The notes below the pieces were generated by a model that saw only the letters and a program-made list of their open reading frames with translations, had not been told where the DNA came from and did no database searches. The position numbers were made by a program, and so were the translations under genes. A DNA stretch of 35,021 nt, from IMG/VR virus record IMGVR_UViG_3300049195_000059. One strand, written 5' to 3'. Every line of letters begins with the position of its first letter. The first letter of the stretch is position 1. Origin of the DNA: a virus. Below, in pieces: positions 2,826 to 35,021 of the stretch.

Positions 2826-3677
2826 TCAGCAGTCCGTGACGATGGCCGCGCCGCCGCCGGTCGCCGGCGCGCGCTTAAAGGTGCTGGGTTGCTCGGTAGT
2901 TTCGAGGTTCGCCTTCAGCGCGGTGAAATCAGCCTTGAGAGCGATCACCGCGTCGTTTGCGGGCTTCACTGCGGCAGCGATCTGCTCGCCGATGATGGTG
3001 GCGAACTGGCTGAAATCGGCGTTGTCGTTTGCCGGCTTGGGCGTCTCCTGCGATTCCTGCTGCTTGGGCTTGCCATCGCCGCCGGTCAGCTTGGCTGCCA
3101 GATTATTGAAGCTGGCCAGGAGCGCGGCACCGATGCCCGGACCATCGGGCGGGGGCGCGTCTTCCAGTTCGATCTCGACGGCTTCGAATGCCTCGGAAAA
3201 CAGGTTGTTCGGCGCCGACTTGCGCGCATCGAACATTGGCTTGAGAGCAGCGAAATTGAAGGCCTCGACGCCAAGGGAGGCGGGATTGTCGGTCAGGCCA
3301 AGGCCGGTCAGGCCGATCTTGCCGGTGCCGGCGAAGTCGGGCGAGATTTCGACCGAGGGAAATGGCTTCTGGCCCTTGGCGCGCATGGCGATCAGCTGGT
3401 CGTTCGGTTCGACCTGGACGTAGAGGGCCTTGCGGCGCTCGGTCTTGCCGTCGATCGTGAATTCGTCGGTCTGGGCCTTCACCGCGACGACATCGCCATA
3501 GCCGTTGAACGGCGGCTCGGGGCTGTAGCCCTTGATGTGCTCGACGTTGATGCGCGGCGTATAGTTGGCAGTGTTGAAGGTGGCGACGATGTCGTCGATC
3601 CAGGAGGCCTCGATCTTGCGACCGTCGCTGACGGTGAAGCCTTCAACGAAGACGCGGAAAAATTTGCTCTTGGCCAT
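2826..3677 (-). CDS. O: Capsid scaffolding protein, P2 gpO family
   Basis: The translation from the internal ATG at 3677 begins MAKSKFFRVFVEGFTVSDGRKI...INVEHIKG, like P2 gpO. It is divergent from the terminase/portal pair. The longer ORF to 3761 runs into the intergenic region, ending 8 nt short of the palindrome, and is less likely. Confidence 0.88.
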   Translation of the reverse strand: MAKSKFFRVFVEGFTVSDGRKIEASWIDDIVATFNTANYTPRINVEHIKGYSPEPPFNGYGDVVAVKAQTDEFTIDGKTERRKALYVQVEPNDQLIAMRAKGQKPFPSVEISPDFAGTGKIGLTGLGLTDNPASLGVEAFNFAALKPMFDARKSAPNNLFSEAFEAVEIELEDAPPPDGPGIGAALLASFNNLAAKLTGGDGKPKQQESQETPKPANDNADFSQFATIIGEQIAAAVKPANDAVIALKADFTALKANLETTEQPSTFKRAPATGGGAAIVTDC

Positions 3678-3768
3678 AATCGGTCCGGTTCCCTTGGTTC
3701 CTCGGCAGCACGCGGCAGTGCGGAAGCCAGCAGAAAGGGACCGGAGCTCGCCGTTCCTCAAGGCAGTG

Positions 3769-3795
3769 CATTTGTAGAGGCCGCCTCTACAAATG
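3769..3795. promoter_or_regulatory. Copy 1 of a conserved perfect palindrome, CATTTGTAGAGGCCGCCTCTACAAATG. It is a candidate late-activator binding site shared by the divergent O and P promoters.
   Basis: 11-nt arms surround a single central base. The same element recurs at 26291-26323 and 32114-32140. It lies in the 160-bp divergent O/P intergenic region. Confidence 0.6.
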
Positions 3796-3840
3796 GACGG
3801 GCATGATCAGGGGGTTAGCGGCGCTGCATGGTCCGCCGCG

Positions 3841-5694
3841 ATGGCCACTCAATCTCCCCAGCCCGGCGCGCCCTCTGCCATGTGGCAGTTCGATCCGCGC
3901 CGCCATGCGCGCAGCCTCTACTGGCGCGGATGGGGCGTGACGCAGATCGCGGACGAGTTCGCGCTGCACGGCATCGTCAACGAGAAGGGCGGACGGATCC
4001 CGCGCGCGACGATCGAGACGTGGAAGCAACGCGATCGCTGGGATGAGGCACCGTCGATACGCAAGATCGAGGATGGGCTGGAGATCCGGCTGCTCACCCT
4101 GATCGCCAAGGAGAAGAAGACCAGCGCCGACTATGTCGAGATGGACGCGCTATCGCGCCAGATCGAGAGCCTGGCGAAGGTGCGCCGCTATGAGGCTCCC
4201 GGTGGCCATGCCGGCGACCTCAACGACAAGGTCGGCAATCGCAACGCCGGCGAGCGCAAGAAGGCGAAGAAGAACCACTTCACCGCCGACCAGGCGGCCG
4301 AGCTCAAGCGCATCTTCCTCGAAGGCCTGTATGATTATCAGCATCGCTGGTGGCAGGCGAAGGATCAGCGCACCCGCATGATCCTGAAATCGCGCCAGAT
4401 CGGCGCGACCTACTATTTCGCGTTCGAGGCGCTAATCGACGCGATCGAGACGGGCCGCAACCAGATATTCCTGTCGGCGTCGAAGGCGCAGGCGCATCAA
4501 TTCCGGTCCTACATCGTCAGCTTCGCCAAGCTGGTCGGCGTTGCGCTCACCGGCGATCCGATGCTCATCACCTCGGACCTGCGCCTAGCGGAGGAAGCGG
4601 CGGCGGAACTGCATTTCCTCGGGACCAATTTCCGCACCGCGCAGGGCCGCCACGGCAATTTTTATTTCGACGAATTCTTCTGGGTCCACTCCTTCGAGGA
4701 ACTGAACAAGGTCGCCTCGGGCATGGCGACGCACAAGAAGTGGAGGAAAACCTACTTCTCGACGCCGTCGAGCGTGGCGCATCCGGCCTATCCCTATTGG
4801 ACCGGCGATCGCCGCAACCGCCGGCGCAAGAAATCCGAGCAGGTGAAGATCGACGTCAGCCATGACGCGCTGGCGATCGGCAGCGTCGGGCCTGACCGGA
4901 TCTGGCGCAACATCGTCAACATCGTGGATGCCGAGACCGGCGGCTGCGACCTGTTCGATGTCGAGGAACTGCGGGACGAGTACGCCCCCGACGAATTCGC
5001 CAACCTGTTCATGTGCGACTTTGTCGACGACAGCATGTCGGCCTTCCGCTTCAACGACATGATCGCCTGCGGCGTCGACAGCCTGCTCGAATGGAAGGAC
5101 TTCGATCCGGAGGGCGAGCGGCCCTATGGGCAGCGGAACGTCTGGGCCGGCTATGATCCGCAGGAGAGCGAGACCGGCGATAATGCCGCCCTGGTCATTG
5201 CTGCGCCGCCGCTACAGGTGGGCGGCGAGTTCCGGATCCTTGAGCGTCACCAGCTGCGCGGGCTCGATTTCGAGCAGCAGGCGGAATTCATCAAGGCGGT
5301 GCTGAGCCGCTACCACTGCACCTATCTCGGCATCGACGCCAAGGGCGTGGGCGCTGGCGTCTATCAGATCATGGCCAAGCCCGGCACGATGCCCGGCTGC
5401 ACCGTTGCCAAGATCGAATATTCGCTCGAACTGAAGGCCCACATGATCATGAAGGCGCAGAATATCGTGCGCCGTGGCCGGCTCAAGTTCGACACCGGCA
5501 TGCTCGACCTCGTCTCTGCCTTCGTGTCGATCAAGAAGACGCTGACCACCAGCGGCCGCAACGTCACCTTCAAGGCGGGACGCGGCGGTGAGGACGGCCA
5601 TGCCGATCTCGCCTGGGCGACGATGCACATCCTCATGAACGAACCGCTCGACGGGAAGGAAAACCCCAAGGGCACGATGGAGATTATCGAATGA
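3841..5694 (+). CDS. P: Terminase large (ATPase) subunit, P2 gpP family. The start is uncertain: 3793, 3841 or 3880.
   Basis: LYWRGWGVTQIADEF...TWKQRDRWDE at the N-terminus and the Walker-A-like ILKSRQIGATYYFAFEA are typical of gpP. Its stop overlaps the portal start (ATGA). Confidence 0.9.
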   Translation: MATQSPQPGAPSAMWQFDPRRHARSLYWRGWGVTQIADEFALHGIVNEKGGRIPRATIETWKQRDRWDEAPSIRKIEDGLEIRLLTLIAKEKKTSADYVEMDALSRQIESLAKVRRYEAPGGHAGDLNDKVGNRNAGERKKAKKNHFTADQAAELKRIFLEGLYDYQHRWWQAKDQRTRMILKSRQIGATYYFAFEALIDAIETGRNQIFLSASKAQAHQFRSYIVSFAKLVGVALTGDPMLITSDLRLAEEAAAELHFLGTNFRTAQGRHGNFYFDEFFWVHSFEELNKVASGMATHKKWRKTYFSTPSSVAHPAYPYWTGDRRNRRRKKSEQVKIDVSHDALAIGSVGPDRIWRNIVNIVDAETGGCDLFDVEELRDEYAPDEFANLFMCDFVDDSMSAFRFNDMIACGVDSLLEWKDFDPEGERPYGQRNVWAGYDPQESETGDNAALVIAAPPLQVGGEFRILERHQLRGLDFEQQAEFIKAVLSRYHCTYLGIDAKGVGAGVYQIMAKPGTMPGCTVAKIEYSLELKAHMIMKAQNIVRRGRLKFDTGMLDLVSAFVSIKKTLTTSGRNVTFKAGRGGEDGHADLAWATMHILMNEPLDGKENPKGTMEIIE

Positions 5695-6972: not shown

Positions 6973-7392
6973 TTTTGATGCACTGCGGACATCTCCATTC
7001 CGGCCCCGTCGCTGCTGGGCCGCAGACCCATCCGAAGGGGCACGGCGCTGATTCGTTTTGATGCACCTTCGGGCCCGTTTGAAGGTGTGCAGCGACGTCC
7101 GATTTCGTGCGTGGAGCAGCGCGGCGATCGAGGGAGGGGGCGGGAAAGCGTAACATCCGCAACCTTGTCCGCCGGTGCCATGTCAAGGCTTTGAAATAAG
7201 GCTGCTTTCTGTGTCACGTTCAAGACGTAACCGAACGCCACCTATGCCTTAGAAAAATGCAACACCCGCAGAAAACCTAGCTTTTTCAAACTGTAAATGT
7301 TGCACTTTCAAAATGTAATCTGGTTGCACCAATGTTGCGTCAAAGGTTGCGTCAGAAATGGCGGAAATCCGTCGATGTTGCAGATGTTACAC
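6973..7392. repeat. Iteron-like cluster with consensus (T/G)GTTGC(A/G)(C/T). It is a candidate replication origin or regulator-binding array.
   Basis: Forward copies: 7298-7305 TGTTGCAC, 7322-7329 GGTTGCAC, 7333-7340 TGTTGCGT, 7345-7352 GGTTGCGT, 7376-7383 TGTTGCAG, 7385-7392 TGTTACAC. Three are spaced 11-12 bp apart. Inverted copies: 7258-7264 and 7150-7164. TTTTGATGCAC occurs twice (6973-6983 and 7056-7066). An AT-rich stretch lies at 7270-7320. Confidence 0.5.
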
Positions 7393-7436
7393 TTTTTCCG
7401 ATACCCCCCTCATGATGAATAAACAGCGTGGTGGAT

Positions 7437-8045
7437 ATGTCGGTATCGAAGCTTCTCAGATTGGCTCAGGCGATTGCCGACAAAGCAAACGAGGATCTGC
7501 ATAAGCAGTGGATCGCCCTGTCGTTTAAATTCGCCATCGTGGCGGGCCCCGCTCACACTCCAACGATCCAGAGGATTGGGCGTCTTGATCTTGTGCTCCG
7601 GCAGATGGAGGCCGATATGCTGGATCAATTGCGTCTGCCCGACGACCAGCAGGATATATTCGCGTTCGACCGCCTCTCAGATCAATCCGAGGTTTGGATC
7701 ATCCGAGCTTATGAGGTGATCCGGGCGGCCACGCAGCAGTTGCGCGTGAATCAGAAGGAGAGCGCATCGATAGCCGCGCTGAAGAAAAGCCTGGCGCTGG
7801 TGCGAATGCCGATTGCCAAGGGCGAGATCCAAGGCCGGCTGAACGGCGATCCGCTTATCCTATCCCATAGAGATGGCACCGATCCGAAGCCCTATGCGGC
7901 TGATGGAACTTACATTATGCCGCAGGGCATCTGCACAGCAACAGGATCGATCAGTTGGTCTGCCGTCGATCTGAGTGGCCGAAGGAACGTGATGATACGC
8001 CGTCAAGCATTGGCAGATGAGATGCTAAATCTGGCCATCGAGTAG
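7437..8045 (+). CDS. Hypothetical cargo protein (about 202 aa) in an AT-rich island. No family recognised.
   Basis: This is the only long ORF in a region that is clearly AT-richer than its flanks. The translation is protein-like (MSVSKLLRLAQAIADKANEDLHKQWIALSF...). The start is ambiguous (GTG 7428 or ATG 7437). Confidence 0.6.
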   Translation: MSVSKLLRLAQAIADKANEDLHKQWIALSFKFAIVAGPAHTPTIQRIGRLDLVLRQMEADMLDQLRLPDDQQDIFAFDRLSDQSEVWIIRAYEVIRAATQQLRVNQKESASIAALKKSLALVRMPIAKGEIQGRLNGDPLILSHRDGTDPKPYAADGTYIMPQGICTATGSISWSAVDLSGRRNVMIRRQALADEMLNLAIE

Positions 8046-9844: not shown

Positions 9845-10536
9845 GCCGCCAGTTTCCTTTCCGCTGTGCCCGCGATCTTCTCGCGTGGTGGTATCCAGAA
9901 GGTCGGCGCAAATGGCCGGCCTTGAAAGTCCGTCATGGGAGCGCGGCGCTTGTCCCACACCACCCACATATAATCGATCTTGCCATGGTCGTATGCGTTG
10001 TCGCCCAGCTGCTCGATGATGTCGCCGGGGGGCATCGAGGGCCGCTCGCAGAGGATCCAGACGCCGATCGGCGTCTCGTCCGTGAAAAGCCGGTAGCGGC
10101 CTTCGCTCGCGAGCCATTTGAGCGGCAGTAGGGCGCAGACCTTGTGCGTGGCGATCGACAGGGCACGGCGGATGCACTTTTCCGCCAGGCCGCGCACGAG
10201 GCGGCCATTCTGGAAAGAGAATGGCGGATTGAAGATGATCGACAAGCCGCCGCCTGCTTCCAGCAGATGGCGCTGGTCGCCCAGGAGGTCATGCTCGCCC
10301 ATGAACAGCCGGTGGCCGCCGGCGCGATCGAACAGATCCGTGCCGTAGGCGTTGAGGCCGCGCTCGGTCAGCGCCTCCGGGATATGCAGCTGGCCGCAGC
10401 AGGGATCCAGATAGGTGACGTCCGATTCCAGGGCGATCATGTCGAGCAGGCGGTGCGTCACCCACTTTTCTTCGACATACCAATCCCAAGGATGGCGGCT
10501 GCTGCCCTTCGGGCGGGAAGTGAGTTCGCCGCTCAT
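9841..10536 (-). CDS. Orphan DNA N6-adenine methyltransferase (NPPF motif IV)
   Basis: LDPCCG (SAM motif I-like) and IIFNPPF (motif IV). It has ATGA overlaps with both neighbours. Confidence 0.7.
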   Translation of the reverse strand: MSGELTSRPKGSSRHPWDWYVEEKWVTHRLLDMIALESDVTYLDPCCGQLHIPEALTERGLNAYGTDLFDRAGGHRLFMGEHDLLGDQRHLLEAGGGLSIIFNPPFSFQNGRLVRGLAEKCIRRALSIATHKVCALLPLKWLASEGRYRLFTDETPIGVWILCERPSMPPGDIIEQLGDNAYDHGKIDYMWVVWDKRRAPMTDFQGRPFAPTFWIPPREKIAGTAERKLAA

Positions 10537-15524: not shown

Positions 15525-15869
15525 TCAAAGGGTTACGGCGTCGGCGGCAGGCTCGCTGGGCGGCCCGCCATCATCATTGGCGGCGCGGTCATTGTCCGCG
15601 TGACGCCATTGGGTCATGGGTATGGCTGCCAGGGGACGCGGCATGCGGCTCGGCACGGTGGCCCGCAGCGTCGCCATGCCGACAACGAACTGGCATCCGC
15701 ACCGTTCGACGTTCCGGCAATGATAATAGACCTCGCGGTAGAGCAGCGTGGCCTTGCCAGTTGTCGATCGAGCAAATGCCCGCTCGCCGCAGCCGGGGCA
15801 CTGCACCGACGGCATGCGGGGCGCTCCCCCGCCATTATTGGGTTTCGGCCCATGGCCTTCGATCATCAT
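15525..15869 (-). CDS. ogr: Ogr/Delta-family zinc-finger late transcription activator. The start is either 15869 or the internal ATG at 15815.
   Basis: VQCPGCGERAFARSTTGKATLLYREVYYHCRNVERCGCQF aligns with P2 Ogr FHCPLCQHAAHARTSRYITDTTKERYHQCQNVNCSATF. Both share the CxxC...C-x4/5-C arrangement and the ARt and Y.qC.NV motifs. Confidence 0.75.
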   Translation of the reverse strand: MMIEGHGPKPNNGGGAPRMPSVQCPGCGERAFARSTTGKATLLYREVYYHCRNVERCGCQFVVGMATLRATVPSRMPRPLAAIPMTQWRHADNDRAANDDGGPPSEPAADAVTL

Positions 15870-25370: not shown

Positions 25371-25721
25371 CTAAAGAGAGAGGGGCAGGACGAGGCGAGT
25401 GCGCGCATTCGCGGCTGCGGTGTCGGTGCGATCGCCGTCGATGACGAGGGTTGCTGATCCTGCCCGTTCGCCGGCAGACAGGCTGACGCGGCGCAGGCGA
25501 ATACGATCTTCAAAGCGGGAGATGGCGACAGCGGTGGCAGCGTAGACGCGCAGGATGTTCGCCGGCGTCATGGGCTGGTCGATCAGGTCGGGCAGCAGCG
25601 AGCCATAGTCGCGTCGGCCGACACGGGTGCCGAGCGGCGTGCCGAGAATATCGGCCACCGACTGCTTGATATGTTCGAGGCCATCCAGCACCGCCCCAGA
25701 GGTTCGCGCCATGCCCGCCAT
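25371..25721 (-). CDS. W: Baseplate wedge protein W (gp25-like)
   Basis: 116 aa. LEHIKQSVADILGTPLGTRVGRRDYGSLLPDLIDQP is the GPW/gp25 signature. Confidence 0.88.
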   Translation of the reverse strand: MAGMARTSGAVLDGLEHIKQSVADILGTPLGTRVGRRDYGSLLPDLIDQPMTPANILRVYAATAVAISRFEDRIRLRRVSLSAGERAGSATLVIDGDRTDTAAANARTRLVLPLSL

Positions 25722-26251
25722 CAGACCGGGGCTCCGGTCTGCGCGCCGCCGGCCTGGACGCCGCCATGCTTGTGGTTCTTGAGGCTGATGCCGCCGCCCA
25801 GCACGTCATCGGACGCGGTGACCTTCCCGTTCACGGTAACATCGCCGTTGATGGTGACGCCGCCGGGTGCATCGATCGTTGCCGTCCCGCCTTCGGGTAG
25901 CGTCACGGCAAGCGCATGGCTCGCATGATTGTAGCTGATGACCGCGCCGTCGGGCAGTTCGAGATGGGTGACGTCCGGATCGTTGGACGGTGGCGGATTG
26001 GCATCCGAATAAAGCCCCAGCACGACCAGGCCGTTCTCCACGTCGCCTTCCGGGCAAAGCACAATGCATTGCTCGCCCACCGTTGGAGGCGACCAATAAC
26101 GAGAGCCGCCGGCGCGCTGCGCCACCCACGGCAGTTCCCCCGTGGTAAGCTCACCAAGCTCGACCGTGCAGGTTGCGTTGGCATGGTCGACGGACGCGAT
26201 GGTGCCATATTGGATCGCCTCACCGATCTGCTGTTCGCTGTCCTGTGCCAT
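25721..26251 (-). CDS. V: Baseplate assembly/spike protein V
   Basis: 176 aa. It contains PWVAQRAGGSRYWSPPTVGEQCIVLCPEGDVENGLVVLGLYS and a C-terminal KNHKHGGVQAGG, as in gpV. Confidence 0.88.
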   Translation of the reverse strand: MAQDSEQQIGEAIQYGTIASVDHANATCTVELGELTTGELPWVAQRAGGSRYWSPPTVGEQCIVLCPEGDVENGLVVLGLYSDANPPPSNDPDVTHLELPDGAVISYNHASHALAVTLPEGGTATIDAPGGVTINGDVTVNGKVTASDDVLGGGISLKNHKHGGVQAGGAQTGAPV

Positions 26252-26290
26252 GCGCGGACCATGGCGCGGGGCTTAAGCCCTTGCGCGGCC

Positions 26291-26323
26291 CTGCATTTGT
26301 AGAGGCCGCCTCTACAAATGCAG
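26291..26323. promoter_or_regulatory. Copy 2 of the conserved palindrome, extended here to 33 bp (CTGCATTTGTAGAGGCCGCCTCTACAAATGCAG). It lies upstream of V.
   Basis: It is identical to copy 1 over the full 27-nt element (23-nt core plus CA/TG flanks). Its centre at 26307 is 56 nt from the V ATG. It lies directly after the methylase stop. Confidence 0.6.
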
Positions 26324-26334
26324 GAGATTGCCGC

Positions 26335-27153
26335 TCATGCGTCGTTAGCGGGCAGCGGGAAATTGCTGATCAGCACTTCGCCTGCTTTGGTCGGCTTGCC
26401 GCCCACGCTGTAAGTCGTGTCGATCGCTCCGATGGTGAAGCGGGCGAAGGTATCGCGCACTCCCTCATTGTCGTTGAGCGACATGAGGAAGCGGCCCTTG
26501 ATCCCGGCCAGCTGGTCAGCCAGGGCGGAGAAGTCCGCTCGGCTGAAAACGTCTGGGCCATAGTCCCGCTCGCAAGCCCAATAGGGCGGGTCGAGATAGA
26601 AGAGCGCGCCCTCCCGATCATATCGGCGGATGAACTCGGCATAGGGCAGGCGCTCGATGACGACGGATTGCAGCCGCTCATGGACATCGGCCAGCATAGG
26701 CTCGATCTTGCCGACGTCGAACCGTGCGGGCGAGGCAGCGTCCACGCCGAAACCACGGCCCTTGACCTTGCCGCCGAAGGCGAGGCGCTGGACGTACAGG
26801 AATCGCACCGCGCGCTGGAGATCCGTCAGGCGATCAGGATCCTGCCCCAGCAGCCGCTCGAACTCGGCGCGGCTCGCCACGCGGAATCGCAGCATGTCGA
26901 TCAGATAGGGATAATGCTCGGCGAGGCAGCGGAACAGCGTCACGACGTCGCCCGAAATATCGTTGATCGCCTCGGCGCGCGGGCGGCGCGAGCGGCGCAG
27001 GAAGATGCCGCCCATACCCACGAAAGGTTCGGCGTAACTGCTGTGCGGGATGCTGTCGATGATGGCACAGATCCGCCTGGAAAGATTGCGCTTTCCGCCG
27101 ATGTAACCGGCAACGGGCGAAACGGGACGGACGAGAACAAAAGGGGTAGACAT
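26335..27153 (-). CDS. dam: Dam-type (D12 class) DNA N6-adenine methyltransferase
   Basis: EPFVGMGG (motif I) and YLDPPY (motif IV). 272 aa. It has its own Shine-Dalgarno and a 170-bp upstream intergenic region with terminator hairpins. Confidence 0.85.
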   Translation of the reverse strand: MSTPFVLVRPVSPVAGYIGGKRNLSRRICAIIDSIPHSSYAEPFVGMGGIFLRRSRRPRAEAINDISGDVVTLFRCLAEHYPYLIDMLRFRVASRAEFERLLGQDPDRLTDLQRAVRFLYVQRLAFGGKVKGRGFGVDAASPARFDVGKIEPMLADVHERLQSVVIERLPYAEFIRRYDREGALFYLDPPYWACERDYGPDVFSRADFSALADQLAGIKGRFLMSLNDNEGVRDTFARFTIGAIDTTYSVGGKPTKAGEVLISNFPLPANDA

Positions 27154-30625: not shown

Positions 30626-31180
30626 TCAGGCCGCCGCCGGTGCCGTGCAGGACAGGCGGGCGTAGATGGTCGGGCGAACCGCTGCGATCAGCCCGACGCT
30701 GGCCTTGGCGGTGATGCCTTGGGTGAAGGTGAAGTGGCTGCGCACCGGCTTGGCGCGGTTCACTTCGGCAATGACCTGATCGACAAAGGCGGCCGATGCG
30801 GGCGCGCCGTTCTGATCAAGGTTCAGTACGAGATCGAAGGTGTAAGGATCGCCCTTGGGCTCATGCTGCCACCATTCGCGGATTGCGACCGATCCGCCGA
30901 AACTCTGGATGACGGCGCGCACGGACTCTGCGGTGCCCTTCTGCCGGGCGATGGCAATGGCCTTGCGGACGCGCTCCCGCTTGATGGCTTCGGGCCAATC
31001 GCTGGACCAATTATCGAGCGACAGGCCCCATGCGAGCCACGGCAACAGGGCGATGGGGCAATTCGACGCCGACCAGACTTCCCGGACCAGCACGGCGATA
31101 TCGAGCAGGCGGGCGGCCACCTGCTCCAGCGCCTTTTCCATGTCCGTCGAAGCGGGAGGAAGGATGGATGGATAGGTCAT
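30626..31180 (-). CDS. I: Baseplate/tail protein I
   Basis: 184 aa. ILPPASTDMEKALE...CPIALLPWLAWGLSLDNWSSDWPEAIKR is the gpI signature. Confidence 0.88.
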   Translation of the reverse strand: MTYPSILPPASTDMEKALEQVAARLLDIAVLVREVWSASNCPIALLPWLAWGLSLDNWSSDWPEAIKRERVRKAIAIARQKGTAESVRAVIQSFGGSVAIREWWQHEPKGDPYTFDLVLNLDQNGAPASAAFVDQVIAEVNRAKPVRSHFTFTQGITAKASVGLIAAVRPTIYARLSCTAPAAA

Positions 31181-32079
31181 TCGCCCGTCCCCGCGTAGGT
31201 GAGCGTAATGCCGGTGCAGTATGGAGCTTGCTCGCGGGTGACGATGACGTCCGCCGCCGGTTCGGTCAGGACGACGTTCTGCACGCCCTCGACATGCAGG
31301 GCGGCGAAGACGCCGGATCGCGTGATGTCACGGCCAATGCGGTGGCTGGACGCGACATAGTCATCCAGCTTCGCGCGGGCGGCATCGAGAACGACGCTGC
31401 CGTCGGGGCCGCTGAACGTCGTGATCTCCGCGAGGACTTCATAATTGACGATTTCCGCCGACTGCACCGTCACGAAGTCGGTCAGCGGGCGGCGCGTCTC
31501 ATCCGACACATAGGCCGCCACAGCCTCGAGCAGATCTGGCGATGCGGTGCCCGGTGCGGTGCGGGCGAGAACGGAAACGAGGACTTCGCCGGGGCTGGGG
31601 CTGGTCGCGCTGGCGTCCAGCACATCGGCGTCTGCCGACAGCGCGTGGAAGATATAGGCCCCTTCCGGCCCGGCCACGGAATAACCTTCTGGTGCCAGCA
31701 CCATACGGCGGCGGAAATCCGCGTCGCTTTCCATGACAGCGGGGATCCCCAGAACAGCGTCCGCCGGCGTGATCTCGAACCGGGCGATGCCGAACAGCGC
31801 GGCAATGTTGTCGAGATCGGCACCCACGGCATAAGCGGGCATGACGGCGCGGGCCGCGTCGTTTACGCGCTGGCGCAGCAGCTGGGCGAAATAGGCGAAG
31901 GTCTGCAGCAGCTTCGATGCCGGATCGCTGTCCCTGCTCTCGAAATCGGGCATCAGCGTCTTCATGTACGCGACGGCATCGGCATAGATCGTCTCGAAAT
32001 CGAGCGGATCTATGACGTCGGGCGCGGGAAGGCGCGACAGATCAACGGCGGTGAAGGTTGCATCGGCCATGCGGTGCAT
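31177..32079 (-). CDS. J: Baseplate protein J. An alternative start is at 32070.
   Basis: 300 aa. AVDLSRLPAPDVIDPLDFETI resembles the gpJ N-terminus. Confidence 0.88.
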   Translation of the reverse strand: MHRMADATFTAVDLSRLPAPDVIDPLDFETIYADAVAYMKTLMPDFESRDSDPASKLLQTFAYFAQLLRQRVNDAARAVMPAYAVGADLDNIAALFGIARFEITPADAVLGIPAVMESDADFRRRMVLAPEGYSVAGPEGAYIFHALSADADVLDASATSPSPGEVLVSVLARTAPGTASPDLLEAVAAYVSDETRRPLTDFVTVQSAEIVNYEVLAEITTFSGPDGSVVLDAARAKLDDYVASSHRIGRDITRSGVFAALHVEGVQNVVLTEPAADVIVTREQAPYCTGITLTYAGTGE

Positions 32080-32113
32080 GTCGGGGCAGGCCCTAGCGCC
32101 GCGCTATCATGTG

Positions 32114-32140
32114 CATTTGTAGAGGCGGCCTCTACAAATG
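32114..32140. promoter_or_regulatory. Copy 3 of the conserved palindrome, in inverted orientation (central base G). It lies upstream of J.
   Basis: CATTTGTAGAGGCGGCCTCTACAAATG. Its centre at 32127 is 48 or 57 nt from the candidate J start codons. It lies just after the S stop. Confidence 0.6.
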
Positions 32141-32151
32141 GAGGCGGATCA

Positions 32152-32823
32152 TCAGCTTGCGGCTATGTGCGCGTAGAGCATGTCGAGCAGCTGCTCGCGG
32201 TCGGTTGCTGTGGCTCCGAGCAGTTCGCGGCGAGGATAGGGGACTGCCTTCGCCTTGCTCGAGGGCTTGTCGCGCAGGCCGAACTGGTGAACGCCGGCGA
32301 TCTGCGAGACCTTGCCGGAAAAACCAACCCAGAAGCCCTGATCGTCAGCGCCGGTGCGGAGGAATCGCGCGCTCGCCAGGCGGCGGAACATGGCGCGGCG
32401 GCGCAGCCCTCCGCGCCGACGCAGGCGACCGCCGCCGGCGTTGCGATGCTCTTCGGGCACCGGCAACCATTTGACGATCTTGTCGAACTCGAAGGAGCGA
32501 ATGCCGCTTGCCTCGATATCGAAGCCGGTCATCATGCGGCCACTGCCCCAGCTGAAGCTCTTCATGATGACGCGGCGCGGCTCGCCGCCGCCACCTGACG
32601 GATAGAGAAAACAGGCCGCGCCACGGCCAGACACCGGCGGAGCCTTATCCTTGCGGGGCGCGAACGCCGAGCCGTCAGGCTGTCGTTGAGCAGCGATACG
32701 ACGGCGCTGGCTCTCACCAAGGGAGCGGCCCATCCGCCGCATCAGCGCGCGCCGCTCGCCCGATGACAGGCTGCGCAGCAGCGCGCCCGCAATGCGCTCC
32801 ACTTCGGCGAGTTCGTCCGTCAT
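32152..32823 (-). CDS. S: Tail completion / virion morphogenesis protein S
   Basis: 223 aa with a gpS-like N-terminus (...RRIAAQRQPDGSAFAPRK). It follows R with an ATGA overlap. Confidence 0.75.
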   Translation of the reverse strand: MTDELAEVERIAGALLRSLSSGERRALMRRMGRSLGESQRRRIAAQRQPDGSAFAPRKDKAPPVSGRGAACFLYPSGGGGEPRRVIMKSFSWGSGRMMTGFDIEASGIRSFEFDKIVKWLPVPEEHRNAGGGRLRRRGGLRRRAMFRRLASARFLRTGADDQGFWVGFSGKVSQIAGVHQFGLRDKPSSKAKAVPYPRRELLGATATDREQLLDMLYAHIAAS

Positions 32824-34654: not shown

Positions 34655-34879
34655 TCAATCCCAAAGCTGGATGAGGGGGCGGACGCGGGTGGCGTTCGCA
34701 TCGGCGGTGGCGGGCACTGTGACGATCGTGCCGAGCGGTAGGATGGGGCCGAGGTCCGCAAGGCCGGGATTGGCGTCGAGCACGCGCGTCAGTTCGCTGG
34801 GACCAAGCCCGGCATCACGCCAAAGCATCAGATCCAGCTTGTCACCGGATCGGGCAACCAGGCGGCGCTCCTCGGACAT
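34655..34879 (-). CDS. X: Tail protein X (LysM-like)
   Basis: 74 aa. DKLDLMLWRDAG...VLDANPGLADLGPILPLGTIVTVP is the gpX pattern. Confidence 0.85.
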   Translation of the reverse strand: MSEERRLVARSGDKLDLMLWRDAGLGPSELTRVLDANPGLADLGPILPLGTIVTVPATADANATRVRPLIQLWD

Positions 34880-35021
34880 CAGATGAGGTCCACCAAGGTG
34901 CGGCTGCGGCCGAGCATGTCGCGGATCGCGTGCAGGGCATCCCGGCGCAAGTCGCCGATCGATGCACTGAGTTCGTCGGCCTGGTTGCCGCCCGCTGCCG
35001 TCGTGTCAAAATCGCGGTGCC
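34879..35021 (-). CDS. L: 3' end of head completion gene L. Bases 34895-35021 duplicate window bases 1-127.
   Basis: It reads ...DMLGRSRTLVDLI* with the TGA at 34879-34881 overlapping the X start codon. It is the same reading frame as feature 1-467 across the junction. Confidence 0.85.
   Translation of the reverse strand, partial: HRDFDTTAAGGNQADELSASIGDLRRDALHAIRDMLGRSRTLVDLI
34895..35021. repeat. Terminal direct repeat, identical to 1-127
   Basis: Exact 127-bp identity with the start of the window. Confidence 0.95.

Follow-up and report, generated by a model that had tools for sequence, protein, structure and literature searches.

The window, a stretch of 35,021 nucleotides of viral DNA analysed at its full length, contains three identical palindromes that very probably serve as the cis-acting activator sites of four late promoters in a P2-like temperate Sphingobium phage. 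A pattern search of the whole window for CATTTGTAGAGG-NNN-CCTCTACAAATG revealed three exact copies with 0 mismatches, in agreement with the initial annotation of three mismatch-free 27-bp palindromes, and showed no further copies at up to 3 mismatches and no isolated half-sites at up to 2 mismatches. When 100 dinucleotide-preserving shuffles of the window were searched in the same way 0 matches were obtained, and no copies are therefore expected by chance. The copies are:

3769..3795, centre 3782: palindrome copy 1, candidate common activator site of pO (leftward) and pP (rightward)
26294..26320, centre 26307: palindrome copy 2, candidate pV activator site, 56 nt to the V ATG (26251)
32114..32140, centre 32127: palindrome copy 3, candidate pJ activator site, 57 nt to the J ATG (32070)

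The core spacing of the palindrome is TGT-N13-ACA. The arms, earlier given as 11 nt, are 12 nt long, and a centre of CCG or CGG also pairs the outer bases of the triplet, resulting in a 13+1+13 arrangement, while copy 2, earlier described as extended to 33 bp, is perfect over 35 bp (26290-26324). When related junctions were aligned on the palindrome the central triplet was found to be variable (CCG, CGG or CGT) and without fixed orientation. A second perfect palindrome of 12 bp, GGGCTTAAGCCC, is situated at 26269-26280, between copy 2 and the -10-like box of V; it is shared by the window and the S. tyrosinilyticum prophage (L042) alone, the other relatives showing no conservation of it.

A gene map based on PHROGs and Pfam scans together with third-position GC content shows the window to be a circularly permuted P2-like genome of ~35 kb, nearest to Sphingobium prophages. 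The following genes are of importance for the palindromes:

2826..3677, minus strand: O, scaffold protein, heading the O-N-M-L…R-S operon, 105 nt off the palindrome centre
3841..5694, plus strand: P, large terminase, heading the P-Q operon, without Shine-Dalgarno sequence
15525..15869, minus strand: Ogr/Delta-family zinc-finger gene, 114 aa, CX2CX23CX5C, the proposed palindrome-binding activator
25721..26251, minus strand: V, baseplate spike/assembly protein, heading the V…D operon, without Shine-Dalgarno sequence
26335-27153, minus strand: Dam-class methyltransferase, end of the J operon, upstream of copy 2
31177..32070, minus strand: J, baseplate wedge protein, heading the J operon, without Shine-Dalgarno sequence
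32152-32823, minus strand: S, upstream of copy 3, last of the stretch of lysis genes, R and S

On the minus strand the order runs O, N, M, L and, across the window ends, the lysis genes, R, S and copy 3, followed by J, I, H, …, the methyltransferase, copy 2 and V-W-FI-FII-E-T-U-D, and on the plus strand copy 1 is followed by P and Q. Copy 1 is thereby located between the divergent starts of O (3677, minus strand) and P (3841, plus strand), and copies 2 and 3 lie 11-14 nt past a stop codon. The palindromes thus occupy the junctions O|P, S|J and methyltransferase|V, so that every late operon has a site upstream, and the PHROGs and Pfam assignments agree with the earlier placing of the copies at O/P and at the heads of V and J.

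The gene order in the S. tyrosinilyticum prophage (L038) confirms that the window ends (1-730 and 34655-35021) join between L and the lysis genes; there L (464-730) and the gene at 34655-34879 adjoin, so that the window represents a whole phage genome in circularly permuted form. The region 7000-8000 is low in GC (0.55) and may contain the attachment site and the integrase junction. Between 26320 and 32114 the J-to-methyltransferase module has an order that differs from P2 and is bounded by two identical palindromes, which are direct and inverted repeats at once and could serve as recombination substrates. The methyltransferase itself, last in the J operon of the window, is of the Dam-class (D12) N6-adenine type, and a 68-71% identical methyltransferase adjoins Q in some relatives with the same palindrome (L002 11106-11906, L019 10965-11765 and L025 4-789); the D12 methyltransferase behaves as a movable accessory gene.

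The start codons were assigned by comparison with related loci. An ATG inside the palindrome (3793) was rejected as the start of P as it breaks the frame in L002, where the palindromic ATG lies out of frame with P (47 vs 48 nt to the next ATG, also counted as 44 vs 45 nt), leaving 3841 as the P start. The blastx alignments begin directly after the palindrome at the P side, and since the ATG at 3793 is out of frame in L002 the similarity between the palindrome and the P start is read as promoter DNA and not as coding sequence. For J the start is 32070, L004 having no in-frame upstream ATG. The distances from palindrome centre to ATG are then 59 (P), 56 (V) and 57 nt (J), and they stay within 56-60 nt across relatives with terminases 55-92% identical. 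This comparison upholds the distances first proposed for P (59 nt, with the start at 3841) and V (56 nt), and from the pair of values first given for J (57 or 48 nt) it retains 57 and discards 48.

None of the three starts had been credited with a clear Shine-Dalgarno sequence, and the calculated anti-SD complementarity is indeed poor for P (-2.2 kcal/mol), V (-2.2 kcal/mol) and J (+0.4 kcal/mol) when compared with many internal genes, such as L, U, H, FI, I, N and Q, which score -6 to -10 kcal/mol. A consensus σ70 promoter was not found at any of the three palindrome regions, and on the sides of P, V and J the hexamers at +8 to +13 bear no relation to TTGACA; the core promoters thus have neither a good -35 nor a consensus σ70 promoter, as is characteristic of P2-type late promoters. 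The following elements were identified instead:

3827..3832, plus strand: CATGGT, -10-like hexamer of pP, last T 9 nt before the P ATG
26258..26263, minus strand: CATGGT, -10-like hexamer of pV, last T 7 nt before the V ATG
32078..32083, minus strand: CGACAT, tentative weak -10-like element of pJ, last T 8 nt before the J ATG (32070)
3756..3761, minus strand: TTGAGG, -35-like hexamer of pO, first T 21 nt from the palindrome centre
3730..3739, minus strand: CCCTTTCTGC block at the expected -10/start position of pO, conserved in the O-side alignments

The CATGGT box has an A at position 2 and a T at position 6. On the P side it is kept as gcggCATGGTC in relatives, even in those with a differing palindrome, and in distant relatives (terminase 61-76% identity, other palindromes) TAGGCT is found in the same register with a centre-to-ATG distance of 59-60 nt. 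The -10-like box of pV is likewise present in phages of another palindrome type. From these positions pP is predicted to start 0-2 nt before the P ATG and the V transcript is predicted to be leaderless. The conserved hexamer 7-9 nt before the V and P ATGs thus gives support, at the level of sequence, to the earlier suggestion of leaderless or nearly leaderless transcripts. On the J side a CCGACATGG block is conserved in 14 distinct junctions, and the assignment of a -10 element there is weak.

On the O side TTGAG is conserved in every alignment, also where the phages carry other palindromes, and the first T of TTGAGG falls at position -35 if the palindrome centre is placed at -56. The CCCTTTCTGC block was rejected as a σ70 -10 box of pO, having no resemblance to one, but it is complementary to the Shine-Dalgarno-like AAGGGAA (3689-3695) before O, with which it might pair in the O leader, or it could be a site for another factor. 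A leader of ~50 nt with a Shine-Dalgarno-like element is predicted for O. Taken together, the centre-to-ATG distances of 56-59 nt, the V and P hexamers ending 7-9 nt before the ATG and the position of TTGAGG 21 nt off the centre fit a palindrome centre at about -56 to -58.

The P2 record (GenBank AF063097) offers the closest annotated parallel. There, one activator site labelled "pO, pP promoters" (3057-3087) lies 55 and 56 nt from the divergent starts, the pV site (10239-10266) has its centre 55.5 nt from a start at the first base of the V ATG, making V leaderless, and the pF site is located 58 nt from its start. The matching architecture bears out the earlier remark that the palindromes sit where P2 has late promoters: in both genomes three activator sites serve four late operons, one of them common to the divergent pO and pP, and both carry a gene of the ogr type. 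In the P2 pV site the right half, TTCTACAAATG, has 10 nt in common with the arm of the window palindrome, and the half-site TCTACAAATG is common to the window dyad and P2 pV. The spacing of the window dyad is TGT-N13-ACA, in place of the P2-type consensus TGT-N12-ACA, which counts against the assignment. A literal TGT-N12-ACA was not found in the three activator-site regions of P2, whose sites are imperfect partial dyads in contrast to the identical perfect 27-bp palindromes of the window. Other differences concern the operon order (J-I-H, then V-W-F… in the window; V-W-J-I-H-G, then F… in P2), the apparently leaderless P and J (P2 P has a 23-nt leader) and the O leader (40 nt in P2, predicted ~50 nt in the window).

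Two further phage groups come near to the arrangement described here. Stenotrophomonas phage Smp131 has putative late promoters PP'/PO', PJ' and PV' with, as in the window, rearranged operons of the JIHG and V…D types, a single dyad that is used in both directions by P and O, one further dyad before J and another before V, and a gene for an Ogr-like zinc-finger protein; its sequence-predicted sites resemble TGT-N12-ACA and were not reported as identical perfect palindromes, and its host is a gammaproteobacterium whereas the host of the window phage is alphaproteobacterial (PMC3931495). The Ralstonia phages phiRSA1 and phiRSY1 carry a TGTTGT-N13-ACAACA motif, sharing with the window the N13 spacing, four late promoter regions that have a dyad in common at 50-90 nt from the initiation codons, the lack of a σ70-type promoter and an Ogr homologue with a zinc finger, but their arm sequence and host differ, the spacing to the start codons varies more and the motif is sequence-predicted (PMC5694545). 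A literature search for sphingomonad P2-like late promoters found nothing relevant. Among the enterobacterial phages, P4 Delta, phage 186 B, PSP3 Pag and phiR73 Delta are small C4 zinc-finger activators whose target dyads lie near -55 in P2-type late promoters; Delta consists of a tandem duplication, and cross-activation between helper and satellite is documented. The N13 spacing, the common bidirectional site and the leaderless V all have precedents, and what is particular here is the combination of three identical perfect 27-bp sites, apparently leaderless P and J, an alphaproteobacterial host and a visible diversification of the boxes.

The presence of an Ogr-like gene at 15525-15869, as first annotated, is confirmed by a match to PF04606 (E 2.7e-10, 40.5 bits, with a curated cut-off of 26.3), and BLASTP against P2 Ogr gave 33% identity over 51 aa (E 1e-5). 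Its four cysteines are conserved in 16 homologues. The P2 protein is shorter (72 aa) and has the spacing CX2CX22CX4C, and it lacks the acidic C-terminal tail of the window protein. In the C-terminal third of the Ogr homologues of this group the acidic, proline-rich motif W(R/H)xA(A/D)NDRAANDDxPP(S/T)EP is conserved, absent from P2 Ogr, and may constitute an activation or interaction tail. A PDB sequence search returned no relatives of the Ogr/Delta family.

The distribution of the palindrome was followed in viral and host sequences. A scan of IMG/VR with the 21-bp core gave 32 loci, 30 of them with the full 27-bp palindrome, and in all 30 the site occupies either O|P or the region ahead of J or V, next to genes whose proteins are 48-93% identical to those of the window; the same element is thus found at the same junctions in about 30 related viral contigs. 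Among host genomes (one genome per species, 185,579 species) the palindrome was found in prophages of three Sphingobium species only, with three copies in Sphingobium aromaticivastans, three in S. tyrosinilyticum and two in Sphingobium sp. WCS2017Hpa-17, again at the same junctions, while six single matches in unrelated organisms have different flanks and were counted as chance. The nearest prophage is that of S. tyrosinilyticum CGMCC 1.16225, with 95-99% protein identity. Near relatives were not found among sequenced phages, a 16-kb megablast against 50,697 phage records giving only two 72% tail-sheath matches.

Palindrome-anchored alignments of 39 distinct junctions (13 O, 12 V and 14 J) showed the arms to be 100% conserved. 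The 40 nt upstream of the J copies are 43% conserved, the columns +31 to +46 downstream of the palindrome are 91-95% conserved across the junctions, and at the V junctions columns +31 to +46 past the palindrome are 95% conserved vs 58% upstream. Relatives have inserts of 0.5-1.2 kb between the palindrome and the upstream gene (S or the methyltransferase): at copy 2 the gap to the methyltransferase gene reaches up to 1.1 kb with the distance to V constant, and at copy 3 there are 0.5-1.2 kb between S and the palindrome with the distance to J kept. Inserts between the palindrome and the downstream start were not found in any of the relatives. Because the palindrome keeps its ~56-60 nt to the downstream ATG despite these upstream inserts, it is taken to be part of a promoter and not a terminator.

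The inserts directly upstream of the J or V palindrome (L002 725-1608, L013 159-1314, L023 1097-2217, L033 699-1964 and others, 0.5-1.2 kb) are an observation in their own right. Accessory genes seem to be located by preference between the end of a late operon and the activator site that follows it, for which orf30 and fun(Z) of P2 offer a parallel.

At the same positions other relatives carry other boxes. When the boxes were collected from terminase-anchored loci, of which ~80 contigs were available, about 14 different palindrome types appeared, among them CATATGGAGAGG…, CATTTGGA(C/T)AG…, CATCGGGCGAGA…, CATTTCGCT…, CATTTGGTC… and CTCTTGTAGAAA… as well as GCAATGGTAGAG…, GCAATCGTAGAGAC…, TTGTGGAGA…, CCTTGTAGAGAC…, TCGTGTAGAAA… and CCTTGTGAAAT…. 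Within a phage the boxes vary together: by a strict test the arm at O|P and the arm upstream of J are identical in 28 of the 34 distinct phages in which both junctions are present, and four of the six failures represent one asymmetric site that is flipped. For the CATTTGGA(T/C)AG type the V site matches too, and in L076 and L079, in which an insert of 1.4-2 kb lies between O and P, each of the two genes has a copy of the palindrome on its own side. Such concerted variation, as read from the alignments, carries the signature of a regulon recognised by a phage-specific trans-acting factor. The box type ATTTGGATAG…CTGTCCAAAT (L049, L052, L062 and L201-L214) is consistently asymmetric, one arm reading GGATAG and the other GGACAG. 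For V, J and O it is the arm with GGATAG that is promoter-distal, which points to a role of orientation or to a difference in binding between the two subunits. In a distant relative (L098, 13416-17370) three copies of a repeat, (G)ACCGGGACGGAGGG-N-TCCGTCCCGG(TC), are present within 4 kb downstream of the terminase gene, and this repeat is unrelated to the late boxes.

Whether the boxes follow the Ogr protein was addressed with 13 related genomes with recovered Ogr homologues. Inside the terminase-anchored loci only L078 contains a homologue, as the gene is situated just beyond the 10-kb flank. Several phages with the same palindrome as the window have terminases 86-87% and Ogr 89-93% identical to those of the window, while phages with CATATGGAGAGG or CATTTGGAYAG boxes have more similar terminases (90-92%) but an Ogr of only 54-58% identity. 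The pattern is suggestive, not proof, of a closer link of the box type to the distant Ogr gene than to the terminase gene beside it. The covariation is loose: UViG_2864665875_000003 has the same palindrome with a terminase 90% (partial) and an Ogr 63% identical to those of the window, and in L116 the site closely resembles the L046 type but the Ogr is rather different. Given the exception of UViG_2864665875_000003, Ogr specificity must rest on few residues, and positions fitting the pattern, for example Q vs E after the last cysteine, give only hints. The early regions may be mosaic as a block, in which case another early gene could co-vary equally well. Box types differ sometimes between phages with terminases over 90% identical, and it is conceivable, though on balance doubtful, that Ogr and its box form rapidly diversifying specificity pairs in sphingomonad P2-like phages, with each type orthogonal to the others and all late boxes of a phage changing jointly to a new sequence. 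If so, co-resident prophages or satellites would be unable to trigger or hijack each other's late genes, and from the perfect palindromes and the many natural pairs of protein and site one could read the code by which the Ogr/Delta zinc finger recognises DNA.

The same data bear on other explanations of the palindromes. Late-promoter operators bound by another regulator, either an early or middle phage protein or a host activator or repressor, with the Ogr homologue acting elsewhere or without sequence-specific contact, are unlikely. The phage with an identical site and an Ogr only 63% identical would be accommodated in this way, and linkage across the early region as a whole could produce the covariation, but the genome has a bona fide Ogr/Delta protein, the position and geometry of the sites equal those of Ogr-dependent P2 promoters and the half-site core is common to P2 pV; moreover, a host factor cannot account for about 14 phage-specific site types in one host group. 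The operator of the host regulator PpsR/CrtJ in purple bacteria is TGT-N12-ACA upstream of photosynthesis genes. This candidate was rejected by the N13 spacing, the phage context and the variation of the site between phages, and the resemblance is regarded as coincidental.

It is very improbable that the palindromes act as RNA hairpins at operon ends, that is as a terminator, 3'-end stabiliser or processing site for the transcripts ending with S or the methyltransferase, although they may have a secondary role of this kind. The closeness of copies 2 and 3 to the preceding stop codons, the stable stems (-22 to -38 kcal/mol in 66-nt contexts, z -2 to -5) and the failure to detect other terminators at these two copies would all suit a hairpin; against this, copy 1 lies between divergent starts with nothing to terminate, none of the copies has a U-tract on either strand, which together speak against a Rho-independent terminator, and in relatives the palindrome is found 0.5-1.2 kb from the upstream stop with the distance to the downstream ATG kept. 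Within a site type the arms are also invariant without compensatory changes while the loop is free, which is characteristic of recognition by a protein and not of a base-paired RNA. It is hardly credible that the element has no regulatory role and is either a palindromic repeat of mobile or host-wide kind (REP/MITE-like) or a recombination hotspot at which modules are exchanged. Such an element could explain why identical copies, being both direct and inverted repeats, flank the J-to-methyltransferase module with its order unlike P2. It is largely refuted by the scan of 185,579 species, in which the site occurs in 2-3 copies per genome, all within P2-like prophages of three Sphingobium species and at the same three junctions, the six unrelated single matches differing in their flanks; nor does it agree with the fixed spacing to the downstream ATG or with the other site types found at the same positions in relatives. 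The host-wide REP-like repeat considered in the initial annotation is thereby rejected.

The reading of the palindromes as sites of a late-activator regulon, put forward initially, is thus supported by the comparisons, and the following course of events is proposed. After induction the Ogr/Delta-type protein would bind each dyad at ~56-58 bp upstream of the transcription starts, probably in dimeric form so that each 12-13-nt arm takes up one subunit, and once bound it would recruit host RNA polymerase to core promoters without a usable -35. In P2, Ogr recruits RNA polymerase through the alpha subunit. Copy 1 would act in both directions, on pO and pP, copy 2 would drive V-W-FI-FII-E-T-U-D and copy 3 J-I-H-(G)-methyltransferase. 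The transcripts of P, V and J would start at the ATG or within ~2 nt of it, making them leaderless or nearly so, and the O transcript would have a leader of ~50 nt. The direct binding of Ogr, the -55 geometry, the transcription starts and the polymerase contact are each steps that we infer.

For the Sphingobium prophage group the analysis adds four late promoters to the annotation together with the starts of P (3841) and J (32070) and three operons that are likely to be leaderless. Judged from sequence comparison, it shows the P2 late-promoter design, in which the dyad is near -55, pO and pP share a bidirectional site and V is leaderless, to be conserved from enterobacteria to alphaproteobacteria. 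Current understanding is not overturned by this, the phage being a clean new example of a known switch and not a new kind of element. As the box sequence diversifies in concert in each phage, the group offers a natural series of activators and sites for studying how Ogr/Delta proteins read DNA, with a possible use as non-cross-reacting activator-promoter pairs for high-GC hosts.
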